A stretch of DNA of 64,000 nucleotides from Escherichia coli (GTDB lineage Bacteria > Pseudomonadota > Gammaproteobacteria > Enterobacterales > Enterobacteriaceae). Location: the NCBI RefSeq assembly GCF_044324875.1, contig NZ_CP172185.1; one strand, given 5' to 3'. Each line of letters opens with the position of its first letter. Positions within the stretch are counted from its first letter, which is position 1. A model generated the notes under the pieces. The model was not told where the DNA came from, made no database searches, and saw only the letters and a program-made list of their open reading frames with translations. Positions 646-21,549 of the stretch are shown piece by piece. The position numbers and the translations under genes were made by a program.

Positions 646-687
646 TGAACCGCCCCGGGTTTCCTGGAGAGTGTTTTATCTGTGAAC

Positions 688-1578
688 TCAGGCTGCCAGA
701 TCATCGTTTCCGATGGAAGCATAATAAGATTTTTCTGCTTCTGCCGGTGGGATATGGCCCAGCCTTTCCAGCAATCGTCGATTGTTATACCAGTCCACCC
801 ACGTGAGTGTGGCCAGCTCCACTTCTGTCCGGTTTTTCCAGCTCTTACGGTGTATTACCTCCGCTTTGTAAAGGCCATTGATGCTCTCCGCCATCGCGTT
901 GTCATACGAGTCACCAGTACTTCCTGTTGATGCCAGTAATCCGGCTTCCTTAAGCCGCTGTGTGTAGGCCAGCGATACATACTGAGAACCTTTATCACTG
1001 TGATGGACTGTGCCGGACGGTCGACGGGCCCATAACGCCTGCTCCAGAGCATCCAGCACGAATGTCGTTTCCATAGACGATGAGACCCGCCACCCCACGA
1101 TGTATCCGGCAAACACATCAATGATGAACGCCACATAGACGACCCCCTCCCATGTGCTGACGTAAGTAAAATCAGCCACCCACAACTGGTCAGGACGTTC
1201 TGCCACAAACTGACGGTTTACGCGGTCGCCTGCGGCAACGGCTTTCCGGCTGACGGTAGTGCGGACCTTTTTACCCCGGAGAACACCGGCAAGTCCCATA
1301 ACCGCCATGAGGCGCGCCACTGTACATCTGGCTACCCTGATTCCTTCCCGTAACAACTGACGCCAGACTTTACGCACACCGTATACCTGATGATTCCCAT
1401 CGTATACGCGCAGTATCTCTTTCTTCAGCCAGTCATCGCGCTGCGCACGGGCACTGCGTTTATAAGGATGATGTCGCTGTTGCTGACAGTGGTAATACGT
1501 TGACGGGGCAATATGTAGTTCACTGCATACCGGTCCGACCCCGTACAGCTTACGCAGCTTATCCAGCAGTGGCATCAC
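688..1578 (-). CDS. IS629 transposase OrfB (DDE integrase domain)
   Basis: 296-aa ORF with IS3-family integrase core ([18 protein letters not shown]); 3 aa different from copies 2-4. Confidence 0.85.
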
Positions 1579-1901
1579 TTTTTCCAGAGGCGGTCGAACT
1601 CCGCCTTCGCAAAATAAGCGGAAGCCTGGCGAAGGATATCGTTACTGCGGCGCAGTTCACGATTTTCACGTTCCAGCTCTTTCAGACGCTGACGTTCAGC
1701 GGTGGTGAGCCCGCCATCACCGCCTCCGGTATCCCGCTCATGCTGGCGTACCCAGACACGCAGAGTCTCCGGTGTACAGCCAATCTTTGGGGCAATGGAA
1801 CAAATTGCCGCCCACTGTGAGTCATATTCGCCCTGACTTTCCAGAACCATACGAATCGCCCTCTGACGGACTTCGGGGGAAAAACGAGTATTTTTAGTCA
1901 T
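1575..1901 (-). CDS. IS629 transposase OrfA (helix-turn-helix / leucine-zipper part)
   Basis: 108-aa [22 protein letters not shown]..., overlaps orfB start as in IS3-family frameshift arrangement. Confidence 0.85.
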
Positions 1902-1955
1902 TCTGTTTACCTCTTTCTCAGGGAGTTTAGTCTCCAGGATTCCCGGGGCGGTTCA

Positions 1956-7517: not shown

Positions 7518-9131
7518 TTATTTATTGGTGAGTACTACGTTCCATGGCAGGAGTTCGTCAACTCGGTTGGAAGGCCATTCCGGCAGTACGCTCAGGATAT
7601 GGCGCAGATACGCTTCCGGATCGATACCGTTCAGACGGCAGGTGCCGATCAGCCCGTACAACAGTGCTCCACGCTCGCTGCCGTGATCGCTGCCAAAGAA
7701 CATAAAGTTTTTCTTTCCGAGACAGACTGCACGAAGCGCTCTTTCCGCAGCATTATTATCCGCCTCCGCCAGACCGTCATCACTGTAATAACAGAGGGCA
7801 TCCCACTGATTCAGTACATAGCTGAACGCTTCGCCCAGTCTGGATTTTTTCGACAGCGTACCATTCTTCTCCACCATCCATTCATGCAGCGACGTCAGTA
7901 ACACTTTGCTTCGCTGCTGCCTGACGGCAAGACGCTCTGACTCCGGTAATCCCCGTATTTCATCCTCGATGGCGTACAGTTCACTGATTCGCTTCAGGGC
8001 TTCTTCTGCCGTCGCACTTTTGCTGCTGATGTATACATCGTGGATTTTTCGCCGGGCATGGGCCCAGCACGCAACTTCTGTCAGTGCACCACCTTCACGT
8101 TCTGCACTGAACAACCTGTCGTAACCTGTGAACGCATCCGCCTGCAGGATACCCCGGAAGGGGCGGAGGTGTTGCTCCGGGTGTTTCCCCTGCCGGTTCG
8201 GCGAGTACGCGAACCAGACCGCTGGAGGAGATGACGAACCCACATTGCGATCATCCCGGACATACGTCCAGATACGCCCTGTTTTCGCCTTTTTCTGACC
8301 CGGTGCCAGTACCTTTACCGGTGTGTCATCAGTGTGAACCTTGCGGGTGTTCATTACATAACGGTACAGGGCATCATTCACCGGTGTCATTAACTGGCAG
8401 CACGCGTCAACCCAGTTGGAGAGTAAGGCCCGGCTCAGTTCGACACCCTGGCGGGCAAAGATTTCACTCTGACGATACAGTGGCAGGTGTTCGCAGTATT
8501 TTCCCGTTAACACGCGGGCAAGTAACCCCGGGCCCGCGATACCACGCTCTATCGGACGGGATGGTGCCGGTGCTTCAACGATACAGTCACATTTTGTACA
8601 GGCTTTTTTTACCCGTTCTGTGCGGATCACTTTCAGGGCGCTGCTCACCAGTTCCAGTTGTTCTGCACTGACTTCCCCCAGATAATCCAGCTCACCGCCA
8701 CACTCCGGGCAACAGCTTTCTTCAGGCTCCAGGCGGTTTATTTCGCGGGGCAGATGCTCCGGTAACGGACGACGATGGCGTGACTGTCGCAACTGGCGGG
8801 GAACCTGCCGGTCATCCTCTCGCCCACTGTAACGATCGCTGTCCTGTTCGCGTTGCTTCAGCAGGGCCTCAGCCTGTTCAACTTCACGACGCAGTTTTTC
8901 AGAACGGGTACCGAACAGCATCCGGCGCAGTTTTTCTATCTGAGCCCGCAGATGTTCTATTTCCCGTTCATCTTCTTCGATCTTTTCTTCGGCACGTGCC
9001 AGCGCAGAACGCAGGAAGGCCTCCGTCTCTTCAACCAGACTCAGTTGTTGGTCTTTCTGACGGAGGGCTTCAGCCTGCTCAGAGAGCAACCTTTCCAGCT
9101 CTGCGATGCGAATGAGGTATTTCTGACTCAT
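7518..9131 (-). CDS. IS66-family transposase TnpC
   Basis: 537-aa ORF with N-terminal coiled coil, CxxC..CxxC zinc motif (CCPECGGE...CTKCDC) and IS66 catalytic region. Confidence 0.85.
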   Translation of the reverse strand: MSQKYLIRIAELERLLSEQAEALRQKDQQLSLVEETEAFLRSALARAEEKIEEDEREIEHLRAQIEKLRRMLFGTRSEKLRREVEQAEALLKQREQDSDRYSGREDDRQVPRQLRQSRHRRPLPEHLPREINRLEPEESCCPECGGELDYLGEVSAEQLELVSSALKVIRTERVKKACTKCDCIVEAPAPSRPIERGIAGPGLLARVLTGKYCEHLPLYRQSEIFARQGVELSRALLSNWVDACCQLMTPVNDALYRYVMNTRKVHTDDTPVKVLAPGQKKAKTGRIWTYVRDDRNVGSSSPPAVWFAYSPNRQGKHPEQHLRPFRGILQADAFTGYDRLFSAEREGGALTEVACWAHARRKIHDVYISSKSATAEEALKRISELYAIEDEIRGLPESERLAVRQQRSKVLLTSLHEWMVEKNGTLSKKSRLGEAFSYVLNQWDALCYYSDDGLAEADNNAAERALRAVCLGKKNFMFFGSDHGSERGALLYGLIGTCRLNGIDPEAYLRHILSVLPEWPSNRVDELLPWNVVLTNK

Positions 9132-9161
9132 GACCGTTTTTATAATGCGGTCAGGCGTTTT

Positions 9162-9512
9162 TTACAACATTGTCAGTGAGTTAAGGCGGGATGTTTTTGG
9201 CTGACGCCAGTCCAGCTTATCGAGGAGCATTACCAGTTGCGAACGGGTAATGGATACCTTGCCGTCACGTACCGCAGGCCAGATAAACTGGCCTTCCTCC
9301 AGGCGTTTGGTGAACAGGCACAGACCATCAGCATCAGCCCAAAGAATTTTAACGGTGTCACCCCGTCGGCCACGGAAGATAAACAGGTGGCCGGAGAAGG
9401 GATTATCATTCAGCACATGTTGTACCTGTTCTCCCAGTCCGTTGAAGGATTTACGCATATCGGTAACGCCGGCAACGAGCCAGATACGGGTACCTGATGG
9501 GAGTGAAATCAT
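9162..9512 (-). CDS. IS66-family TnpB
   Basis: 116-aa ORF MISLPSGTRIWLVAGVTDMRKSFNGL... Confidence 0.85.
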   Translation of the reverse strand: MISLPSGTRIWLVAGVTDMRKSFNGLGEQVQHVLNDNPFSGHLFIFRGRRGDTVKILWADADGLCLFTKRLEEGQFIWPAVRDGKVSITRSQLVMLLDKLDWRQPKTSRLNSLTML

Positions 9513-9934
9513 CTTCCCCTCCCGCTCAGTTCGCGGATCAACACCGTGAGCAGCTCTGGCGATGGATTTTCCAGCGTCATGTTACCGTGATGGAACTCCA
9601 CCTTGCAGGAACTGGCACTGACTCTGGTCTGAGTGGAAGTGGATAAAGACGGCGCAATGGCCGCCACAGGTTCTTTCTGCTCATCCGGCGTTATTTCTAC
9701 AGGTAATAATTCAACGCCAGTGTCAGAAGAGGTCGTTACCGGAAGACGCCGCGAAACACGCCCTTCGTTCTGCCAGAGCCTGAGCCATTTGAAAATAACA
9801 TTATCATTGACGCCATTTTCACGTGCAATCTGTGCAACACAAGCTCCAGGTTGTGATGCCAGTTCAACCATACGAAGTTTGAATTCATTCGAATAGTTTT
9901 TACGAGGTTCTTTTCGCCAGTCCTGTAATTCCAT
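9509..9934 (-). CDS. IS66-family TnpA
   Basis: 141-aa ORF with helix-turn-helix region (NYSNEFKLRMVELASQPGACVAQIARENGV). Confidence 0.8.
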   Translation of the reverse strand: MELQDWRKEPRKNYSNEFKLRMVELASQPGACVAQIARENGVNDNVIFKWLRLWQNEGRVSRRLPVTTSSDTGVELLPVEITPDEQKEPVAAIAPSLSTSTQTRVSASSCKVEFHHGNMTLENPSPELLTVLIRELSGRGR

Positions 9935-10014
9935 ACTTAGATGTCCGTCTATATCAGATGGGCGTCTAAGTTACCAATTTTCGTCTGATGGCTACATACG
10001 GCGGTCAGTTTACG

Positions 10015-10290
10015 CTTACCATTGAGGCAATTGAAAAACCACTTTCTTCCCTGCCTTACTCACTTTCCCGTCACATCCTGGAACATCTGCGTAAACTCAC
10101 CAGTCACGAACCCGTGATTGGCATTATGGGGAAAAGCGGGGCCGGTAAATCCTCACTCTGTAATGCACTGTTTCAGGGGGAGGTCACCCCGGTCAGTGAT
10201 GTTCACGCCGGCACCCGGGAAGTGCGGCGCTTCCGTCTGAGTGGCCACGGTCACAGCATGATTATCACTGACCTGCCCGGGGTGGGCGAG
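10015..10290 (+). pseudogene. GTP-binding protein fragment (YeeP/YfjP/YkfA-like prophage GTPase), truncated at both ends by IS elements
   Basis: ORF 9988..10293 carries a P-loop (GKSGAGKSSLCNALF) and DLPGVGE; the ATG at 9988 lies inside the IS66 terminal repeat; 3' end cut by IS629 at 10291. Confidence 0.65.
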
Positions 10291-10332
10291 TGAACCGCCC
10301 CGGGTTTCCTGGAGAGTGTTTTATCTGTGAAC

Positions 10333-11223
10333 TCAGGCTGCCAGATCATCGTTTCCGATGGAAGCATAATAAGCTTTTTCTGCTTCTGCCGGTGGGATAT
10401 GGCCCAGCCTTTCCAGCAATCGTCGATTGTTATACCAGTCCACCCACGTGAGTGTGGCCAGCTCCACTTCTGTCCGGTTTTTCCAGCTCTTACGGTGTAT
10501 TACCTCCGCTTTGTAAAGGCCATTGATGCTCTCCGCCATCGCGTTGTCATACGAGTCACCAGTACTTCCTGTTGATGCCAGTAATCCGGCTTCCTTAAGC
10601 CGCTGTGTGTAGGCCAGCGATACATACTGAGAACCTTTATCACTGTGATGGACTGTGCCGGACGGTCGACGGGCCCATAACGCCTGCTCCAGAGCATCCA
10701 GCACGAATGTCGTTTCCATAGACGATGAGACCCGCCACCCCACGATGTATCCGGCAAACACATCAATGATGAACGCCACATAGACGACCCCCTGCCATGT
10801 GCTGACGTAAGTAAAATCAGCCACCCACAACTGGTCAGGACGTTCTGCCACAAACTGACGGTTTACGCGGTCGCCTGCGGCAACGGCTTTCCGGCTGACG
10901 GTAGTGCGGACCTTTTTACCCCGGAGAACACCGGCAAGTCCCATAACCGCCATGAGGCGCGCCACTGTACATCTGGCTACCCTGATTCCTTCCCGTAACA
11001 ACTGACGCCAGACTTTACGCACACCGTATACCTGATGATTCCCATCGTATACGCGCAGTATCTCTTTCTTCAGCCAGTCATCGCGCTGCGCACGGGCACT
11101 GCGTTTATCCGGATGATGTCGCTGTTGCTGACAGTGGTAATACGTTGACGGGGCAATATGTAGTTCACTGCATACCGGTCCGACCCCGTACAGCTTACGC
11201 AGCTTATCCAGCAGTGGCATCAC
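10333..11223 (-). CDS. IS629 transposase OrfB
   Basis: 296-aa ORF identical to copies 3 and 4. Confidence 0.85.
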
Positions 11224-11546
11224 TTTTTCCAGAGGCGGTCGAACTCCGCCTTCGCAAAATAAGCGGAAGCCTGGCGAAGGATATCGTTACTGCGGCGCAG
11301 TTCACGATTTTCACGTTCCAGCTCTTTCAGACGCTGACGTTCAGCGGTGGTGAGCCCGCCATCACCGCCTCCGGTATCCCGCTCATGCTGGCGTACCCAG
11401 ACACGCAGAGTCTCCGGTGTACAGCCAATCTTTGGGGCAATGGAACAAATTGCCGCCCACTGTGAGTCATATTCGCCCTGACTTTCCAGAACCATACGAA
11501 TCGCCCTCTGACGGACTTCGGGGGAAAAACGAGTATTTTTAGTCAT
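11220..11546 (-). CDS. IS629 transposase OrfA
   Basis: 108-aa ORF identical to other copies. Confidence 0.85.
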
Positions 11547-11600
11547 TCTGTTTACCTCTTTCTCAGGGAGTTTAGTCTCCAGGATTCCCGGGGCGGTTCA

Positions 11601-12608
11601 GTACTGCCGAATTAGCCCATTTGTGTTCTCATTTGTTCCCCGCTGCCAAGGACTCTGAGGATCGCAGAAGTAAACTTTAACGCCGGTGCTGACAGTAAAT
11701 TCTAGATGTCTGGCCAGTTCCATTCCTCTGTCCCATGTCAGTGATTTTCTGAGTTCTGACGGTAAACTCAGGAATTTGTCGGTAAGAGCCTGATTTACTG
11801 AGACAGAATCTTTGCCCCTGAGTCTAAGGATGATCGTATAACGTGATTTTCGGTCTACAAGTGTGGCTATATGAGAGTTTTTTGTACCTGAGACTAAATC
11901 GCCCTCCCAATGCCCCAGAGAGCGTCTGTTATCGATATTTCGGGAACGTTCGTGAATTGGTGTTCCGTTCACTATGTTAATCGTACCTCTTTCGCCTTTG
12001 CGGGTATGACGCCTGCCATGGCGAAGGCTATGCGACCGTCGCAGATGCTGTATATTCAGGTGGTGTAGCGCTTCACGGCTACGAAAGTACAGCGTTTTAT
12101 AAATTGTCTCAGGTGATATTCGCAGCGTTTTTTGACGTGGTTTTGTTCGCCTTAACCATCCTGATATTTGCTCTGGAGACCATTTCATCTCCAGCTTTTC
12201 CAGAACAAGCTTTCGCAATGGTAAATTTTGATCCAGTAAGCACGGTTTTGGCCTTTTCGCCATTCTGTTGGCTCGGTTATTAGCATCAACAGCTTTGTAA
12301 TAGCGTCTGCCCCGATTACGCTGAACTTCACGTGAGATCGTCGAAGGACTGCGATTCAGCGCAGTAGCTATCGCACGAATGCTCATTTTGGCTGACAAAC
12401 CAGCTCGTATCTCCTCGCGCTCAGACAGTGTCAGGTGAGCTACAGCCCGCTTACGCTCATGGGGTTTTATGCCGCCAGTATCCCTTAACATAGTGAAGAT
12501 CGTTCCGGGTTTTGAACCCAGGATATTCGCTATTTCACTGAAGCCTGTTCCGTTCTTCCATAGTTCAAAAACAGAGGCTTTTTCCTCTGCTGTAAATGTT
12601 CGTCTCAT
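11601..12608 (-). pseudogene. IS30 transposase, C-terminally truncated
   Basis: ORF 11598..12608 [20 protein letters not shown]...NENTNGLIRQY stops at the IS629 boundary; full IS30 transposase is longer. Confidence 0.8.
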
Positions 12609-12670
12609 TCAAAAAACCTCCGCAACCCCATGTTTTCACATAACTGTTGCGTTGACCAATTGAATCTACA
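11601..12670 (-). mobile_element. IS30, truncated (about 150 bp of its distal end replaced by IS629)
   Basis: Terminal repeat TGTAGATTCAATTGGTCAACGCAACAG... (reverse complement ending at 12670); transposase ORF loses its C-terminus at the IS629 junction. Confidence 0.8.
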
Positions 12671-13005
12671 GTAGCCTTTTTTAATATTTCATTTTCCATT
12701 TCAATACGTTGTAGCTTTTTCCTGAGCTCACGGATTTCAATTTGTTCCGGGGTAATGGGGGAGGCTTTTGGTGTTTTTCCCTGCCGCTCATCACGTAATT
12801 GTTTCACCCATCGCGTCATTGTGGAAAGGCCGACATCCATAGCGCTGGCTGCATCTGCCACGGTGTAATTCTGGTCAACGACCAGTTGAGCGGATTCGCG
12901 TTTAAACTCTGCGCTGAAATTTCTTTTTTTCATTATGGCACCTGTGTTGTTCTGAGGTGAGCATATCACCTCTGTTCAGGTGGCCAAATTCAGTAAACCA
13001 CTTCA
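12671..13005 (-). mobile_element. IS911 5' fragment (left terminal repeat plus orfA 5' part), interrupted by IS30
   Basis: Terminal repeat TGAAGTGGTTTACTGAATTTGGCCACC (reverse complement ending 13005); orf[24 protein letters not shown]... begins at 12933 and runs into IS30 sequence. Confidence 0.75.
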
Positions 13006-13164
13006 ATCACCCTGCGGGCATGCCGCAGGTCACTGCCGCTCAGGTTCTCCACCGTCACACCCGGTGGGATTGTTGGGTTTCTCATCGTGAGTTACCGGTT
13101 CAATATTCCAGACAGACTCGCGGTTCATTTAAGCATCCATGCCCGCCCTGAACTCCGGGCACAC
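13006..13164 (-). other. 159-bp fragment of a group II intron 5' end (domain I start), identical to 26800-26958
   Basis: Reverse complement begins GTGTGCCCGGAGTTCAGGGCGGGCATGG... directly after IS911 orfB codons ..GDVTY; ends abruptly at the IS911 left terminal repeat. Confidence 0.75.
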
Positions 13165-13380
13165 TATAGGTCACATCACCGCACCACACCTGATTTGGCT
13201 CGGTCACGGCGAACTGCCGTTCAAGGTAGTTAGGGATAGCAACATGTTCATGACCACCACGTTTATACCGGTGAGTCGGCTGCTGACAGCTGACCAGCCC
13301 CAGCTCCTTGGCAATTTGACGTCCTTTCAGGCCTGGTGACCCACCTAATAACTCTGAGACTGCCTTCAGCAAACCATCAC
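13165..13380 (-). pseudogene. IS911 orfB 5' fragment (up to the ..CGDVTY motif), lacking its own upstream IS911 sequence
   Basis: ORF 13100..13372 translation ..[53 protein letters not shown] then intron-derived residues; hsdR stop codon lies at 13387-13389. Confidence 0.6.
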
Positions 13381-13386
13381 TCCTTT

Positions 13387-16300
13387 CTACCTACCCACCA
13401 TTCGTTGCATACTTTGCGTCCACGAGGCTTTAAATGCTGAATCTCCTGCGAACAACTTGTAGAGCTCAAGTTCATCTTTACGGCGTTGCAGCATGATTTC
13501 CTTGAGCATTTTTTCGAAGGCCAAATCTCGATTATGGGGATCTGGGTTGTTTTTGTATTTCGATTCGAAGTCAGGGTGATTGCGGATACTTTCAGCGATG
13601 TTCACGAACTTAACCTTTTGCTCTTCAGGTGTGGCACTCCAGCCCTGGAACCATCGCTCATTAAATGTGCGAATGATTTCATCCAGCGGGTCAGTTTCTT
13701 TTTCACCGCCATGCACCCCACGTGGGTTCGGATTTTGAGGATCAAGCTCCGCTTCTTGGTCACTAAGTTTAATGCTGTGGTTAAGCTTCACACGTTGCAA
13801 ACCGTATGAACTCAGATCGACAGAATCGAGAAGCTCATCAATAGCATCAGCATCGGGATCTTCCACTTTCAATTTCGGTATTAAAAACTTCAGGAACCAA
13901 AACAGTTTTTCCCAGCTGACCATTTCATAAGGCATGATAGAAGCCATCTGCCCATAGATTTTAACGAACTGTTTGGCTTTAATCTTAAAGTCCACTTTAG
14001 CTTCAGCTTCAAGATCTAGTTCATGGTCAAACCGCGCTGCGGCAATATCAATGATTGGACTGAGTGTTTGGGCGTCTTCATTCTTGAAATAACGCGTCAC
14101 AAAGTCTTCAACTTCATACCACTCGTACACACCGACATCGTCCATTTCATCTTTCAACTCGTGCAGTACGTTTATATCTGTAGCTTGGGACAATGACGTT
14201 GCTGTATAGAAAGGATCGAATGCTGATTGAATATCTTCAACCGAGTTGAAAAAATCCAGGATAAACAAGTCTTCTGTTTTCTTCCCTAGCTTAGGTGCAC
14301 TGCGATTGAGCCTAGATAGCGCCTGAACACACAAGACACTGGCGAGCTTCTTATCTACATACATGGCGCAAAGCTTAGGCTGGTCAAACCCAGTCAGATA
14401 CTTGTTAGCAACCACTAAAAGTCGATACTCATCGGTATCAAACATATCTTTGGTATCTGACTCGGCAAAACCATTAATATCTGCTTCGGTATATTCAATA
14501 CCATCAACTTCTTTGGTTCCTGAGAAAGCAATGGCAACTTTAAACGGGTTTCCTTGCTCCTCAAGTATTCGCCTTATCGCTTTGTAGTATCGAATGGCCG
14601 CCTCAATATTTTGAGTGACCACCATTCCTTTACCTTTACCTTTGAGCTTTTTCGTATTCACGACATGCGGAACAAAATGCTCCAGCATAATCTCTGCCTT
14701 GATATCAATTGTTTGCTGGCTTCGTTCTACATAAGCTCTGAGTTTTTTCTGCGCCTTTTTGGTATCAAACTCAGGGTTATCAGCAATTGATTTCTCAATC
14801 TCATAATAACTTTTGTACGTCGTATAATTTGCCAGCACATCCAAGATGAAGCCTTCTTCAATGGCTTGTTTCATCGAATACAAGTGAAACGGCTTGTAAG
14901 AGCCATCTTCTTGGCGTTGACCAAATTTCTCCAAAGTGCTGTTTTTTGGTGTCGCTGTAAATGCCAGGTACGACGCATTCCCGCGCATCTTACGCGATCT
15001 CATCGCCTGAAGGATTTTATCCTGAGCATCTTCTGCCTCTTCGACTTCAGACTTGCCCATCGCTCGGTTCATATTGTCATGCGCCGAACCAGACTGTGAG
15101 CTGTGTGCTTCATCGATGATCACTGCAAAGCGCTTGTCACTAAGATCGGCGATACCATCAATAATGAACGGGAATTTCTGAATCGTCGTTATAATAATCT
15201 TTTTGCCATTCTCCAGCGCCTGCTTAAGCTCAGAAGACTTATTCGCTGGGGCAATAATGTTCTTTACTTCAGAAAACTCTTTAATGTTATCCCGCAGCTG
15301 CTTGTCCAATAGGCGTCTATCGGTGACCACAATCACAGAGTCAAACAACGGCTGCTCCAAGCTTTTTCCGCCTGCCACATCAGACGAAGCAGGATAGGTT
15401 TCAATTAGCTGATAAGCTGCCCAGGTAATCGAGTTAGACTTACCTGAACCGGCTGAGTGTTGAATTAAGTAAGTCTGACCGACACCGTGCTGGGCGGCAT
15501 GGTCTACTAATTTTCTCACCACATCCAATTGATGGTATCGAGGAAAGAACAGGGTTCGCTTTGGTAATGGATCTTTGCTTGACCCATCCAGACGCACAAA
15601 ATGCTGAATAATATTCGCCAAGCTGTCTTTAGTGAATACTTCTTGCCATAGGTATGCCGTTTTATGGCCAGATGGATTCGGCGGGTTGCCTTGTCCAAGA
15701 TTGTGACCTTTATTGAACGGCAAGAAGAATGTACTGCTACCTGATAACTTGGTGGTCATATACACTTCGTCGGTATCGACCGCCATATGCACTAGGCAGC
15801 GGCCAAAGGTCAGCAATGGCTGAGTTGCATCCCGATCATCTCGATACTGCTTTTGGCCGTGATAACGTGCTGTTTGCCCGGTCCATGCGTTCTTCAACTC
15901 CAGCGTTATCAAGGGTATTCCGTTGATAAACAATACCATGTCGATTTCTTGTAGGGGATTTACCATGGAATAGCGCACTTGGCGAGTACAACTAAACACG
16001 TTATCTGCAAAGTTTTGCTTTACCTTCTCACTACTACTTGCCAAAGGGGCTGGATAGAGCAAATTGAAATGAGCATCGTCTACGCTTAGCCCTTTCTTAA
16101 GTAAATGAAGAATGCCATGCTTCTTAATCAGTCGGTCAAATCGTTCGAGTAACTTACGTTGCCAATCTGAGGGGTTGTTCTTTTGCAGTTTGGCCAACTC
16201 TACTTCTTGTGTCTTTTGCAGAAATTGCCAGAAAAAACGTTCATCAATGGCATATTGCATATTAAAGTCACTAGCAGCACCAATGAAGTATCCAGCACCC

Positions 16301-16404
16301 AGTGACTGCTGACTCAGTCCCTCTTTAAGCTCTTCAGCACTGATCCCAGCCAGACATTTCTCAATGGCCGACTCTAATGCTTGTTCATTGGTTTGACTGA
16401 CCAT
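13387..16404 (-). CDS. hsdR: Type I restriction enzyme R subunit (HsdR): N-terminal PD-(D/E)xK nuclease plus SF2 helicase motors
   Basis: 1005-aa ORF; nuclease motif D..ELK ([17 protein letters not shown]), helicase motif [11 protein letters not shown], motif [10 protein letters not shown], motif III FTATP; last gene of an hsdM-hsdS-X-hsdR array. Confidence 0.85.
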
Positions 16405-16418
16405 AATTGTAAATTCCC

Positions 16419-17582
16419 TTAATCAAAATTCTTCTGTTTCATTGCCTCAGCCGCTTTTTGCAGCGGTCCTTTTAAGGCTTTTTCTAACTTTGTCATCTGC
16501 TCTAAGTGCCACGCAACCGCTTGGGGCCAAGTCTCTTTGTTAAACCCGTCAGCTTTGGTCGAAAACTGGATACGGCAAGATTTCTTCTCATCCAGCCTCA
16601 TCCACTCAAGTTCTGCACCAAAAGTATGCTCAATGTCTTGTTTGGACTGACTCAACAAATCAAAAAGGTATTTATTCTCTTCGGTAACCCCACGGCTGAT
16701 CCAAAGCTCTACTCGAAGCTCTTTTTGCAGAAATATCAGGTTATACGGACATCCACTTAGCCCTGAGCCTGCTGATAACCAATGATCTTTGCTTGGGCTA
16801 ATGTTGTTATAGAGTTGGCAAGAGCTTTTCTGAAACGCCTCTAAGGCACGCTCCCAGTACTCGCGACGCACGGTATGGCGGTTTTTTAGTACCACTTCGG
16901 TGGTTTTTTCTTCCGCTTCCTTGGCATTAATGCCGATCATCAACTCTTTCGCTTCTGGCGTTGGAATGATCTGGTCAATATTAATCAGTAGCTGTTCACC
17001 CAGTGAATAAGGCGTGATTTTGAAGCAGGCAATGCTAATGCCTTGACCCAATAACCACAGCGCGGTGCTGGTCACTTCTTTGCGAAAGTTTGCCGCAACT
17101 AACATAATGCGCTGGCTGTTACCCAGGTTGAGCTTTAACTCATCGAGATCGGGCGCATCCAAAAACTCACATATTCTAGCAGAGGCACTTGCAGGGGTAT
17201 TAAACAAGTCAACCTCTCCTGTTACAGGCTCATAGCGGTCTAAGTACTGCTGGTAAATTTCAACGATTTGCGCTTTGGTTAAACTTGCGCAGTAGGAGGC
17301 ATATTTAAGCGCCTGCCACACCACATCGCGGCCACTATCGTCCAGCTTGTTTTCAATAATGACCAAGTTGCCATCTTTATCCAGTGCCAGTAAATCTAAG
17401 CGTTCACGGGTGTCATCAAAGCCATCGAACTCTTTTTGAATAATCAGCAGCTCTTCACCCAGTGCGGAAGGCTCGTGTGCCAACCATTCCTGAAGATTTT
17501 TGCGCTCAGTAAAGCCCAACTCACTGAATCTCTTCGTCTTAACCGGACTAATCCTGTTGGTCTGATAATTTACCGTGAACAT
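16419..17582 (-). CDS. Uncharacterised protein with a PD-(D/E)xK-like nuclease motif, embedded between hsdS and hsdR
   Basis: 387-aa ORF; N-terminal LALDKDGNLVIIENK fits D-x(n)-E-x-K; start codon 10 nt after the reconstructed hsdS stop and 15 nt before hsdR; no family assigned with confidence. Confidence 0.6.
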   Translation of the reverse strand: MFTVNYQTNRISPVKTKRFSELGFTERKNLQEWLAHEPSALGEELLIIQKEFDGFDDTRERLDLLALDKDGNLVIIENKLDDSGRDVVWQALKYASYCASLTKAQIVEIYQQYLDRYEPVTGEVDLFNTPASASARICEFLDAPDLDELKLNLGNSQRIMLVAANFRKEVTSTALWLLGQGISIACFKITPYSLGEQLLINIDQIIPTPEAKELMIGINAKEAEEKTTEVVLKNRHTVRREYWERALEAFQKSSCQLYNNISPSKDHWLSAGSGLSGCPYNLIFLQKELRVELWISRGVTEENKYLFDLLSQSKQDIEHTFGAELEWMRLDEKKSCRIQFSTKADGFNKETWPQAVAWHLEQMTKLEKALKGPLQKAAEAMKQKNFD

Positions 17583-17646
17583 ATTCGCTTCCTATTGCTC
17601 AACCTGAACCGCCCCGGGTTTCCTGGAGAGTGTTTTATCTGTGAAC

Positions 17647-18537
17647 TCAGGCTGCCAGATCATCGTTTCCGATGGAAGCATAATAAGCTTTTTCTGCTTC
17701 TGCCGGTGGGATATGGCCCAGCCTTTCCAGCAATCGTCGATTGTTATACCAGTCCACCCACGTGAGTGTGGCCAGCTCCACTTCTGTCCGGTTTTTCCAG
17801 CTCTTACGGTGTATTACCTCCGCTTTGTAAAGGCCATTGATGCTCTCCGCCATCGCGTTGTCATACGAGTCACCAGTACTTCCTGTTGATGCCAGTAATC
17901 CGGCTTCCTTAAGCCGCTGTGTGTAGGCCAGCGATACATACTGAGAACCTTTATCACTGTGATGGACTGTGCCGGACGGTCGACGGGCCCATAACGCCTG
18001 CTCCAGAGCATCCAGCACGAATGTCGTTTCCATAGACGATGAGACCCGCCACCCCACGATGTATCCGGCAAACACATCAATGATGAACGCCACATAGACG
18101 ACCCCCTGCCATGTGCTGACGTAAGTAAAATCAGCCACCCACAACTGGTCAGGACGTTCTGCCACAAACTGACGGTTTACGCGGTCGCCTGCGGCAACGG
18201 CTTTCCGGCTGACGGTAGTGCGGACCTTTTTACCCCGGAGAACACCGGCAAGTCCCATAACCGCCATGAGGCGCGCCACTGTACATCTGGCTACCCTGAT
18301 TCCTTCCCGTAACAACTGACGCCAGACTTTACGCACACCGTATACCTGATGATTCCCATCGTATACGCGCAGTATCTCTTTCTTCAGCCAGTCATCGCGC
18401 TGCGCACGGGCACTGCGTTTATCCGGATGATGTCGCTGTTGCTGACAGTGGTAATACGTTGACGGGGCAATATGTAGTTCACTGCATACCGGTCCGACCC
18501 CGTACAGCTTACGCAGCTTATCCAGCAGTGGCATCAC
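17647..18537 (-). CDS. IS629 transposase OrfB
   Basis: 296-aa ORF identical to copies 2 and 4. Confidence 0.85.
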
Positions 18538-18860
18538 TTTTTCCAGAGGCGGTCGAACTCCGCCTTCGCAAAATAAGCGGAAGCCTGGCGAAGGATATCG
18601 TTACTGCGGCGCAGTTCACGATTTTCACGTTCCAGCTCTTTCAGACGCTGACGTTCAGCGGTGGTGAGCCCGCCATCACCGCCTCCGGTATCCCGCTCAT
18701 GCTGGCGTACCCAGACACGCAGAGTCTCCGGTGTACAGCCAATCTTTGGGGCAATGGAACAAATTGCCGCCCACTGTGAGTCATATTCGCCCTGACTTTC
18801 CAGAACCATACGAATCGCCCTCTGACGGACTTCGGGGGAAAAACGAGTATTTTTAGTCAT
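18534..18860 (-). CDS. IS629 transposase OrfA
   Basis: 108-aa ORF. Confidence 0.85.
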
Positions 18861-18914
18861 TCTGTTTACCTCTTTCTCAGGGAGTTTAGTCTCCAGGATT
18901 CCCGGGGCGGTTCA

Positions 18915-19526
18915 TTGGGAAGTTGTGCCTCTAAAAAGGTTGGCGGTCTTGAGCCCTTCTGTGAAAGTTTCAAATAGAAAGTCCAAAGAATTAGTTACTT
19001 TCTTAGCGATAGAAAAGGTTTCAACAGATGGATTTATTGATCAAGATACATTAATGCCTATATGTGATGTGAGCCAAGGTTTTACGGTTTTTAACCGGGG
19101 GGATGTGATTGTTGCAAAAATTACACCTTGCTTTGAAAATGGGAAATCTGCTTGGCTTAACAATCTTCAAACTGAGTTTGGTTACGGCTCAACCGAGTTT
19201 CACGTTTTAAGATGTGGTCAGAGAATTATAGGAAGTTTTCTCTACTTAATCGTTAGTTCGCCCCTTTTTCTTAATGCCGGTGAGGCTATGATGACTGGTT
19301 CAGCTGGTCAGAAGCGCGTGCCTAGTTCATTTATCCAAAACTTTCCTACCGCAATTCCCGGAGTTGCAGAGCAAGAAAAAATAGTATCAAAGGTAAAAGA
19401 GCTGTTTTCACAGATTGATGTTGTTGTGGCTTCTACGGTAAATCAAATCGAAAAGCTCAAAGAATACAAAACCACCCTGATCAACAGCGCCGTGACAGGA
19501 AAAATAAAAATCACCCCAGAAATGGT
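18915..19526 (+). pseudogene. hsdS: hsdS 3' half (second target-recognition domain and distal conserved region), inverted relative to the rest of the operon
   Basis: ORF 18925..19575 (GTG start artefact) ...QEKIVSKVKELFSQIDVVVASTVNQIEKLKEYKTTLINSAVTGKI... typical HsdS C-terminal repeat; reads on + while hsdM, hsdS 5' half and hsdR read on -. Confidence 0.75.
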
Positions 19527-19580
19527 TGAACCGCCCCGGGAATCCTGGAGACTAAACTCCCTGAGAAAGAGGTAAACAGA

Positions 19581-19907
19581 ATGACTAAAAATACTCGTTT
19601 TTCCCCCGAAGTCCGTCAGAGGGCGATTCGTATGGTTCTGGAAAGTCAGGGCGAATATGACTCACAGTGGGCGGCAATTTGTTCCATTGCCCCAAAGATT
19701 GGCTGTACACCGGAGACTCTGCGTGTCTGGGTACGCCAGCATGAGCGGGATACCGGAGGCGGTGATGGCGGGCTCACCACCGCTGAACGTCAGCGTCTGA
19801 AAGAGCTGGAACGTGAAAATCGTGAACTGCGCCGCAGTAACGATATCCTTCGCCAGGCTTCCGCTTATTTTGCGAAGGCGGAGTTCGACCGCCTCTGGAA
19901 AAAGTGA
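19581..19907 (+). CDS. IS629 transposase OrfA
   Basis: 108-aa ORF identical to other copies. Confidence 0.85.
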
Positions 19908-20794
19908 TGCCACTGCTGGATAAGCTGCGTAAGCTGTACGGGGTCGGACCGGTATGCAGTGAACTACATATTGCCCCGTCAACGTATTACCACTGTCAGC
20001 AACAGCGACATCATCCGGATAAACGCAGTGCCCGTGCGCAGCGCGATGACTGGCTGAAGAAAGAGATACTGCGCGTATACGATGGGAATCATCAGGTATA
20101 CGGTGTGCGTAAAGTCTGGCGTCAGTTGTTACGGGAAGGAATCAGGGTAGCCAGATGTACAGTGGCGCGCCTCATGGCGGTTATGGGACTTGCCGGTGTT
20201 CTCCGGGGTAAAAAGGTCCGCACTACCGTCAGCCGGAAAGCCGTTGCCGCAGGCGACCGCGTAAACCGTCAGTTTGTGGCAGAACGTCCTGACCAGTTGT
20301 GGGTGGCTGATTTTACTTACGTCAGCACATGGCAGGGGGTCGTCTATGTGGCGTTCATCATTGATGTGTTTGCCGGATACATCGTGGGGTGGCGGGTCTC
20401 ATCGTCTATGGAAACGACATTCGTGCTGGATGCTCTGGAGCAGGCGTTATGGGCCCGTCGACCGTCCGGCACAGTCCATCACAGTGATAAAGGTTCTCAG
20501 TATGTATCGCTGGCCTACACACAGCGGCTTAAGGAAGCCGGATTACTGGCATCAACAGGAAGTACTGGTGACTCGTATGACAACGCGATGGCGGAGAGCA
20601 TCAATGGCCTTTACAAAGCGGAGGTAATACACCGTAAGAGCTGGAAAAACCGGACAGAAGTGGAGCTGGCCACACTCACGTGGGTGGACTGGTATAACAA
20701 TCGACGATTGCTGGAAAGGCTGGGCCATATCCCACCGGCAGAAGCAGAAAAAGCTTATTATGCTTCCATCGGAAACGATGATCTGGCAGCCTGA
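19904..20794 (+). CDS. IS629 transposase OrfB
   Basis: 296-aa ORF identical to copies 2 and 3. Confidence 0.85.
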
Positions 20795-20836
20795 GTTCAC
20801 AGATAAAACACTCTCCAGGAAACCCGGGGCGGTTCA

Positions 20837-21543
20837 CAATGCTCTGGAATATCTCCAATCCAATCCACACCGGAGTCTTTCATTGGCACATTGGGATCAA
20901 GCCCTTGGGTCACCGCCTGTTGGATGATGATCTGCTTATGTTCTTTTAACAGATTAATTTGCTTTTCTTTGATCGAAATCGCTTCGTCGATTAGAGCGAT
21001 TTTCTTGTCTAGGAAGTTGGCGATACGGGTTTGTTGCTCATGGGGAGGAACAAACGTCTTAAAACTCAGAAATGAATCTTTAGGAATTGTATTTCTCAGG
21101 CCACGATAAAGCGGTTTAAGCATCTTTTTTGCATCAAGGTTCATATAAAAATAGTATAAAAACCTATTATCAAAATTGTCATTTAGTTCAAAAACGGTAT
21201 ATGCACCAGTAATCATCCCATTAAATGGCGACAACCCAACAGTTCTGGGTGTTTCTTCCACGTCGAACAAGCAGAAAATGAAATCTCCACACTGCACTTC
21301 TTGATAAGTATCGAACTCTGCTGGGAACTTACCCTCTGGGTTTTCCATATCACGCTTAATCACACCTCTGAGAGTAAGCGATAGCAAATCATATTCGCTT
21401 GAGCGTTTTCCAACCTGTTTTTTCTTCAAGCGAAAGATGTGCTTATTAGCTAATAAGCTCCAAGACGCAGGAATATCCCCTAGCCATTCAACACCTGAAT
21501 CCTTATAAACCTCATATTTCGGCATTTCAGAAATCTTCATCAT
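20837..21543 (-). pseudogene. hsdS: hsdS 5' half (first target-recognition domain and central conserved region), cut by IS629
   Basis: ORF 20797..21543; ...TRIANFLDKKIALIDEAISIKEKQINLLKEHKQIIIQQAVTQGLD...DIPEH then IS-derived read-through; start overlaps hsdM stop. Confidence 0.8.
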
Positions 21544-21549
21544 AACGAC

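Follow-up and report, generated by a model that had tools for sequence, protein, structure and literature searches.

Inversions bracketed by identical insertion sequence (IS) copies in opposite orientation are known in enterobacteria for IS1, IS5, IS26, IS629 and other elements. They reorder many genes, and their target duplications are swapped, such that the flanks of each copy mismatch until the segment is re-inverted in silico. For IS26, He et al. (2015) described replicative transposition 'in trans', in which a relative carries one IS and the derivative carries two inverted IS copies plus an inversion (PMC4471558). A literature search on IS629 target site duplication combined with inversion retrieved no papers, and the inversions treated in one O157 paper are prophage-mediated, not IS629-mediated (PMC7430833).

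Invertible segments also occur within hsdS, the gene for the S subunit of type I systems. In phase-variable hsdS loci (S. pneumoniae SpnD39III/ivr, PMC4190663; Mycoplasma pulmonis hsd), a segment encoding a target-recognition domain (TRD) lies between short inverted repeats within the coding sequence, spare cassettes and usually a dedicated recombinase are present, and hsdS is intact either way. Incomplete HsdS proteins can themselves be functional in type IC systems: Tn5- or deletion-truncated HsdS of EcoDXXI and EcoR124I are active as homodimers with palindromic specificity, and co-expressed HsdS halves give back wild-type activity (PMC3874165). Here we describe an Escherichia coli hsdS gene interrupted by two IS copies, with its 3' half inverted between them. 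The window, the whole 64,000-nucleotide stretch of DNA analyzed, is from contig NZ_CP172185.1 (assembly GCF_044324875.1), and positions refer to it throughout.

Organization and reconstruction of the hsdS locus

Two 1310-bp IS copies at 17605-18914 (- strand) and 19527-20836 (+ strand) are 100% identical, inverted relative to each other and separated by 612 bp. The intervening segment (18915-19526, + strand) is the 3' half of hsdS, containing codons 236-439 with TRD2 and the distal conserved helix, and lies on the strand opposite to hsdM, the hsdS 5' half, DUF4268 and hsdR. The coordinates and the inverted arrangement of the two copies agree with the original prediction. Copy 1 (IS629-group, IS3 family; orfB 309 bits with NF033516) has its IRR end toward DUF4268, and copy 2 has its IRR end toward the hsdS 5' half; the left ends (IRL, orfA side) of both point to the inverted segment. 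The hsdS 5' half (20837-21543, - strand) contains codons 1-235 plus 2 nt and encodes TRD1 and the central conserved helix, with the domain boundary taken from alignment to 1YF2. It reads on into the IS to give a 248-aa product that is also present in four draft assemblies. On the far side of copy 1, a terminal stub of hsdS (17592-17604, - strand; gene strand GGT TGAGCAATAG) is uninterrupted both in intact relatives and in a contig of GCA_040713135.1, which has a single IS.

The neighboring genes, all on the - strand, are intact: hsdM (21550-23973; 807 aa from the annotated start; PADLOC MTase_I, 890 bits; TIGR00497), the DUF4268 gene between hsdS and hsdR (16419-17582; PADLOC PDC-S11, PDLC04913, 603 bits; Pfam DUF4268 in relatives) and hsdR (13387-16404; 1005 aa; NCBIfam TIGR00348, E=2e-62; PADLOC REase_I). 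Open reading frames across 12000-27000 consist of hsdR, DUF4268, the hsdS pieces, hsdM, IS transposases and a group II intron reverse transcriptase. Neither a silent hsdS cassette nor a site-specific recombinase was found among these reading frames or in the annotation of a relative. Shufflon-type site-specific inversion was rejected as an origin of the arrangement: the locus is without a recombinase and without a spare cassette, and its repeats are whole IS elements.

In order along the window, the four junctions (slashes denote IS boundaries) read ..CAACC/TGAACCGCC.., ..GCGGTTCA/TTGGGAAG.., ..GAAATGGT/TGAACCGCC.. and ..GCGGTTCA/CAATGCTC.., the third reading ..AAATGGT/IS in shorter form. Outer copies of the target duplications are located at 17602-17604 in the terminal stub (ACC, or GGT on the gene strand) and at 20837-20839 for the mid-gene site (CAA), and inner copies at the two ends of the inverted segment (TTG, 18915-18917; GGT, 19524-19526). 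When the segment is re-inverted, the flanks become ACC-IS-ACC and CAA-IS-CAA, as originally predicted. The repeats are exactly 3 bp, since a fourth base pair fails to match both times (AACC versus ACCA; CCAA versus CAAT), and the chance of two independent 3-bp matches is ~(1/64)^2, or 2.4e-4.

The ancestral hsdS was restored by re-inverting the segment and taking out both IS copies together with one copy of each repeat. The product is a single open frame of 441 aa, with the joint reading ..DIPEHWEVVPLKRLAV.. and the C-terminus ..ITPEMVEQ*, which bears out the continuous frame that had been proposed. Aligned gap-free with the intact hsdS of E. coli MS 119-7, it has a single-nucleotide difference in 1326 nt; the rebuilt locus as a whole is collinear with the MS 119-7 chromosome over 9633 nt, gap-free and with one mismatch. 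The lone mismatch, at window position 19011, gives ATA (Ile267) here and ATG (Met) in MS 119-7; relatives have Met. The restored HsdS matches PF01420 (Methylase_S) twice, at residues 115-197 and 235-404, and can be aligned to two S subunits of solved structure, 1YF2 and 2Y7C (EcoKI HsdS). The rebuilt sequence thus has two TRDs, each with a conserved helix, beside hsdM and hsdR, as expected of an HsdS, whereas the gene in the window is itself in three pieces. The mid-gene IS entered TTG at codons 235/236, where IPEHW aligns with IPEDW of 1YF2 at the start of TRD2; as judged from this alignment, the insertion lies precisely at the boundary of the central conserved helix with TRD2. Only 7 nt (V-E-Q, about 2.3 codons) separate the distal IS from the TAG stop; the six codons given in the original prediction were a miscount. 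The reconstruction of an hsdS with two insertions and an inverted half is solid and is confirmed to the base.

The IS element

Each IS contains a 108-aa orfA overlapping a 296-aa orfB (in copy 2, 19581-19907 and 19904-20794) and extends from TGAACCGCCCCGGG... to ...CCCGGGGCGGTTCA, with TG...CA termini. OrfB scores 308.7 bits with the IS3-family transposase model NF033516, whose cut-off is 160, and the N-terminal portion of this model is hit by orfA. RefSeq annotates near-identical copies, with 3 mismatches in 1310 nt, as 'IS3 family transposase, programmed frameshift' and gives them a pseudoknot feature. The window contains five copies of this IS, all resolved in place; the duplications are 3 bp at both hsdS sites, and the copy at 646-1955 has a 4-bp duplication, GTAC. 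The element therefore combines the features by which the IS3 family is recognized, namely an orfA/orfB DDE transposase, TG...CA ends and a target duplication of 3-4 bp.

Isoforms of an IS conventionally share more than ~95% nucleotide identity. Compared with the IS629 copy on pO157 Sakai, the element is equal in length and gap-free but has 66 mismatches in 1310 nt (94.96% identity). From this comparison it is best described as a member of the IS629/IS1203/IS3411 group, and the name IS629 used in the original prediction is approximate.

Stages of decay in related genomes

When the rebuilt hsdS and its flanks were compared with 5,426 complete E. coli genomes, 58 matched, 57 of which contain the hsdS 3' part. 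The hsdS region is on the hsdM strand in all 58 and on the opposite strand in none. The possibility that the + orientation is ancestral, which would have overturned the original prediction, was rejected on this basis. The exact intact allele is present, uninterrupted and on the hsdM/hsdR strand, in five complete genomes (DLI.6n, GF4, MS 119-7, LR-31 and BEN5202), which establishes the - orientation as ancestral. GF4 is the closest complete relative and, outside the IS changes, is essentially identical to the window: positions 11600-17604, including hsdR and DUF4268, are 100% identical, hsdM has 0 differences in 2424 nt, and window 18913-19529 matches GF4 in reverse orientation (GF4 sequence 17790-17174). 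The window exceeds GF4 by three copies of the IS found at the hsdS locus and also has one IS-adjacent deletion. The complete nucleotide identity of hsdM, DUF4268 and hsdR with this intact relative upholds the view that the system was functional until recently.

Draft assemblies contain the intermediate states. GCA_040713135.1 has the mid-gene IS only: one contig contains hsdM and the hsdS 5' half and then reads ..GAGCATTG/TGAACC.., and a second starts at the other IS end (..GGTTCA/TTGGGAAG..) and continues through the hsdS 3' half (..MVEQ*) into DUF4268 and hsdR. In these contigs the 3-bp duplication, TTG, can be read directly at either end of the IS, and the distal site is empty. In GCA_027706465.1 and GCA_036632015.1, the hsdS 5' half stops in the IS, and a separate contig of 863-866 bp consists of IRL, the hsdS 3' half and IRL; the 866-bp contig has been recorded in six samples. 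With an identical IS end on each side of the 3' half, at least two draft assemblies have both sites occupied. The hsdS 5' half of GCA_027946735.1 likewise ends in the IS. Short-read contigs are blind to segment orientation, the four short junctions being the same in either state. Compared at the sequence level, these genomes place the mid-gene insertion before the distal one.

The allele has been altered in other ways as well. Strain 23CRST013 shares the mid-gene insertion; its block of hsdM and hsdS 5' half is inverted between two other IS copies, and the strain is without the hsdS 3' half, DUF4268 and hsdR. Other breaks of this hsdS allele include an IS insertion 27 bp further on, a truncation after ..SAWL and N-terminally shortened gene calls. 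At two further loci, 248-aa and 191-aa reading frames with no IS between them were considered as a candidate IS-excision footprint; these loci instead carry another TRD1 allele that is frameshifted.

Among the complete E. coli genomes searched, none contained both IS copies with the segment un-inverted, and in another search only MS 119-7, which is intact, exceeded 80% coverage; no second genome with the full arrangement of the window was found. Exact-sequence look-ups for the 454-aa product expected from a distal IS only, the intact Ile267 allele, the 216-aa and 203-aa 3' fragments and a 204-aa Ile variant were empty, a result limited by gene callers having taken another start codon (MKVSNRK..); the informative fragments were found by homologue search and cluster listing. 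Near-identical HsdS proteins are present in Morganellaceae and Vibrio, and the G+C content of the locus is 40-45%, compared with 50% for the whole window. These last two observations suggest that the hsdM-hsdS-DUF4268-hsdR operon is a horizontally acquired island.

Routes to the present arrangement

The arrangement is best read as two insertions in opposite orientation, followed by homologous recombination between the inverted copies, and this reading is probably correct. In it, the starting point was a horizontally acquired type I operon, hsdM-hsdS-DUF4268-hsdR, with all genes on the - strand and an intact hsdS. An IS629-group element of the IS3 family inserted into TTG at codons 235/236, and a second, identical copy then entered GGT, 7 nt before the stop, in the opposite orientation. 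RecA-type homologous recombination between the 1310-bp inverted copies would finally have flipped the 612-bp hsdS 3' half, a step that we infer from the swapped 3-bp duplications. The segment would probably be able to flip to and fro thereafter, with an intact gene in neither orientation. IS3-family elements transpose by copy-out/paste-in through excised circles, which produces simple insertions and leaves the donor unrearranged. This behavior, together with recombination of the same IS at the locus in 23CRST013, is the reason for preferring the two-step route.

The same structure could have formed in a single step if the mid-gene IS attacked GGT 612 bp away on the same molecule, duplicating the IS and inverting the segment. 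Such an event would be replicative transposition 'in trans' of the cointegrate type, or else would start from the junction of a tandem (IS)2 dimer. We consider these one-step routes, taken together, unlikely, though far from negligible: they predict precisely the scars that are present (ACC outside and TTG inside for one copy, CAA outside and GGT inside for the other), their starting state with a single mid-gene IS exists in GCA_040713135.1, and the very short distance between the sites suits an intramolecular target. There is also a precedent in IS26, for which the same pattern has been reinterpreted in this way (PMC4471558). The present element, however, is a member of the IS3 family by its NF033516 match and programmed frameshift, and such elements normally make simple insertions via excised circles. 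Inversion by replicative transposition has been documented in the IS6, Tn3 and IS1 families and is not known as the main route for IS3. Two insertions plus recombination and one-step transposition with inversion cannot be separated by the sequence alone. The two insertions originally proposed, and their order, are seen in relatives; homologous recombination is deduced, and a one-step route leaves the same scars.

The second insertion site is 612 bp from the first, which is improbable if targeting is random (~2e-4 of a 5.7-Mb genome); this spacing fits a local or intramolecular event and counts against the two-step route. So does the failure to find, among the complete genomes searched, two IS copies with an un-inverted segment, a state predicted by the two-step route and by no other.

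For the window, the segment's orientation comes from one assembly. Where reads do not span the identical 1.3-kb inverted repeats, the 612 bp between them can be assembled in either direction, the four short junctions are alike in both orientations, independent short-read assemblies stop at exactly these IS ends, and the full arrangement is found in no second genome. The inverted orientation might reflect a choice made during assembly, or the culture might contain both states, with neither fixed. We give this reading very little credence: the window is long and contiguous with its five IS copies resolved in place, which suggests long reads spanning 1.3 kb. It would moreover leave both insertions real and independently confirmed.

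Consequences for the type I system

In either orientation of the segment, the frame of the hsdS 5' half continues into the IS, and that of the 3' half finishes with an IS-derived tail. From this structure we infer that full-length HsdS cannot be made and that methylation and restriction at the original bipartite site are lost. Little space lies between the genes, with gaps of 9 nt between hsdS and DUF4268 (whose ATG follows the hsdS stop) and 14 nt between DUF4268 and hsdR, so that 3.2 kb would now separate DUF4268-hsdR from the hsdM promoter. As methylation and restriction both depend on S, its loss should be harmless to the cell and a safe way to lose a type I system; this may be why the allele has been broken independently several times. 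The locus had been predicted to be switchable in principle, and the segment can indeed probably flip. Flipping back mends orientation alone, though: the mid-gene IS still breaks the frame, both IS copies stay in place and the gene is not restored.

A different outcome is that the system is re-specified instead of dead. The 248-aa fragment, with TRD1 and the central helix, would dimerize and steer HsdM to a palindrome of the first half-site, or else separately made HsdS halves would reassemble. We regard this outcome, in its two versions jointly, as decidedly improbable. With the IS at the exact start of TRD2, the fragment is a complete TRD1-plus-helix module, the inverted piece comes close to a full TRD2-plus-helix module, and hsdM is intact and directly upstream of the hsdS 5' half. 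On the other hand, the fragment bears a 13-aa IS-encoded tail, hsdR is probably weakly expressed behind two IS copies, and the precedent is type IC, in which the two helices are alike, whereas the present system is known from sequence alone. A promoter scan upstream of the inverted half detected no sigma-70-like site, which is weak evidence either way. A more elaborate version, in which half-HsdS co-transcribed with intact hsdM gives a new palindromic methylation and flips of the 612-bp segment by recombination start and stop production of the second half, we think highly improbable. If true, IS elements would by accident have built here a counterpart of the phase-variable hsdS loci.

Re-specification concerns the consequence of the arrangement and is compatible with every structural route to it.

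Discussion

Across close E. coli relatives, the locus passes through four stages of decay, namely intact, one IS, two IS, and two IS with inversion, with the rest of the operon nucleotide-identical to an intact relative. We conclude that this is ordinary IS-driven gene decay resulting from IS expansion and not a new kind of system, and knowledge of IS elements and of type I systems is unchanged by it. Its value is as a clean worked example in which swapped target duplications let an inversion be undone exactly. The repeated independent breaks of hsdS fit the expectation that loss of S is a safe loss of a type I system. For annotation, the three hsdS pieces are to be joined as one pseudogene.

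As in other inversions between IS pairs, identical inverted copies bracket the segment, and the target duplications are swapped until re-inversion. The scale differs: a segment of 612 bp has both of its breakpoints in one gene, which is left as three pieces on two strands. The IS26 'in trans' case shares the same end product, including reverse-complement target duplications and a single-IS relative (PMC4471558); IS26, however, is an IS6-family element and obligate cointegrate former with 8-bp duplications, in contrast to the copy-out/paste-in IS3-family element with 3-bp duplications at hsdS. The truncated type IC HsdS proteins of EcoDXXI::Tn5 and EcoR124I delta-50 (PMC3874165) resemble the 5' half described here in that a transposon at or in TRD2 leaves TRD1 and the central helix. 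Activity and a new palindromic specificity were measured for those proteins, whereas our reading comes from the DNA. Phase-variable hsdS loci likewise place a TRD segment between inverted repeats in an invertible arrangement; unlike in those loci, the repeats here are whole IS elements and the hsdS frame is broken in both orientations.

Sequence variation and breakage of the hsdS allele

The restored hsdS, the frame rebuilt by re-inverting the 3' segment and removing both insertion sequence (IS) copies, differs from its relatives at a single position, window 19011, where A replaces G and the encoded residue 267 is Ile instead of Met. Met occupies this position in all of the database fragments except P0147, which is attributed to a 5.75-Mb genome. 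Four other database entries (P0112, P0010, P0018, and P0060) represent the same hsdS allele broken in different ways elsewhere. Their forms include a fusion to an IS end located 27 bp downstream of the mid-gene insertion site, a truncation after the residues SAWL, and N-terminally shortened calls. The variety of these breaks suggests that hsdS has been lost repeatedly and independently.

The mid-gene IS insertion of the window is also present in E. coli 23CRST013 (NZ_AP045773.1; positions 8954-17723 of the extracted locus, L017), with a different outcome. In this strain two other IS copies flank an inverted block consisting of hsdM, the hsdS 5' half, and an intron, while the DUF4268 gene, hsdR, and the 3' half of hsdS are all missing.

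Additional mobile elements in the window

A third IS copy, 100% identical to both copies at hsdS, is located at window 10291-11600. Comparison of its flanks revealed no target duplication, and 186 bp of an adjacent IS30 end, present in GF4 (the closest complete relative with an intact hsdS; positions 10989-11174 of its locus sequence, L025), are missing from the window. Because of this loss, the IS30 transposase (window 11598-12608) is truncated to 336 residues as compared with 383. The missing segment looks like an IS-adjacent deletion, and the same IS/IS30 junction is found in GCA_040713135.1, a draft assembly containing only the mid-gene IS at hsdS.

Another copy, with four mismatches relative to those at hsdS, is present at window 646-1955, is surrounded by a 4-bp duplication (GTAC), and has no counterpart in GF4. 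Its position according to the GF4 annotation is inside lldD (L-lactate dehydrogenase), which would be disrupted. An incomplete copy (nt 1-795) at window 26959-27753 adjoins the remnant of another IS3-family element, which is found again at window 13006-13192 as a 187-nt direct repeat with 95% identity. Separately, a 1-nt deletion at approximately 25247, relative to GF4, divides ltrA, which encodes the reverse transcriptase/maturase of a group II intron, into two open reading frames (window 25208-26302 and 24780-25166); GF4 has an intact ltrA.

The DUF4268 gene between hsdS and hsdR

The DUF4268 gene (window 16419-17582) lies between hsdS and hsdR, an arrangement present in 10/10 long contigs among the matches listed. 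The hsdS products encoded next to the identical DUF4268 protein in these contigs have three lengths: 436, 441, and 443 residues. Across the assembly collection, 1357 blocks contain the exact DUF4268 protein. Its N-terminal stretch weakly matches NucS (E=2e-5), and in PADLOC the protein is assigned to PDC-S11, a candidate defence family, with a score of 603 bits.
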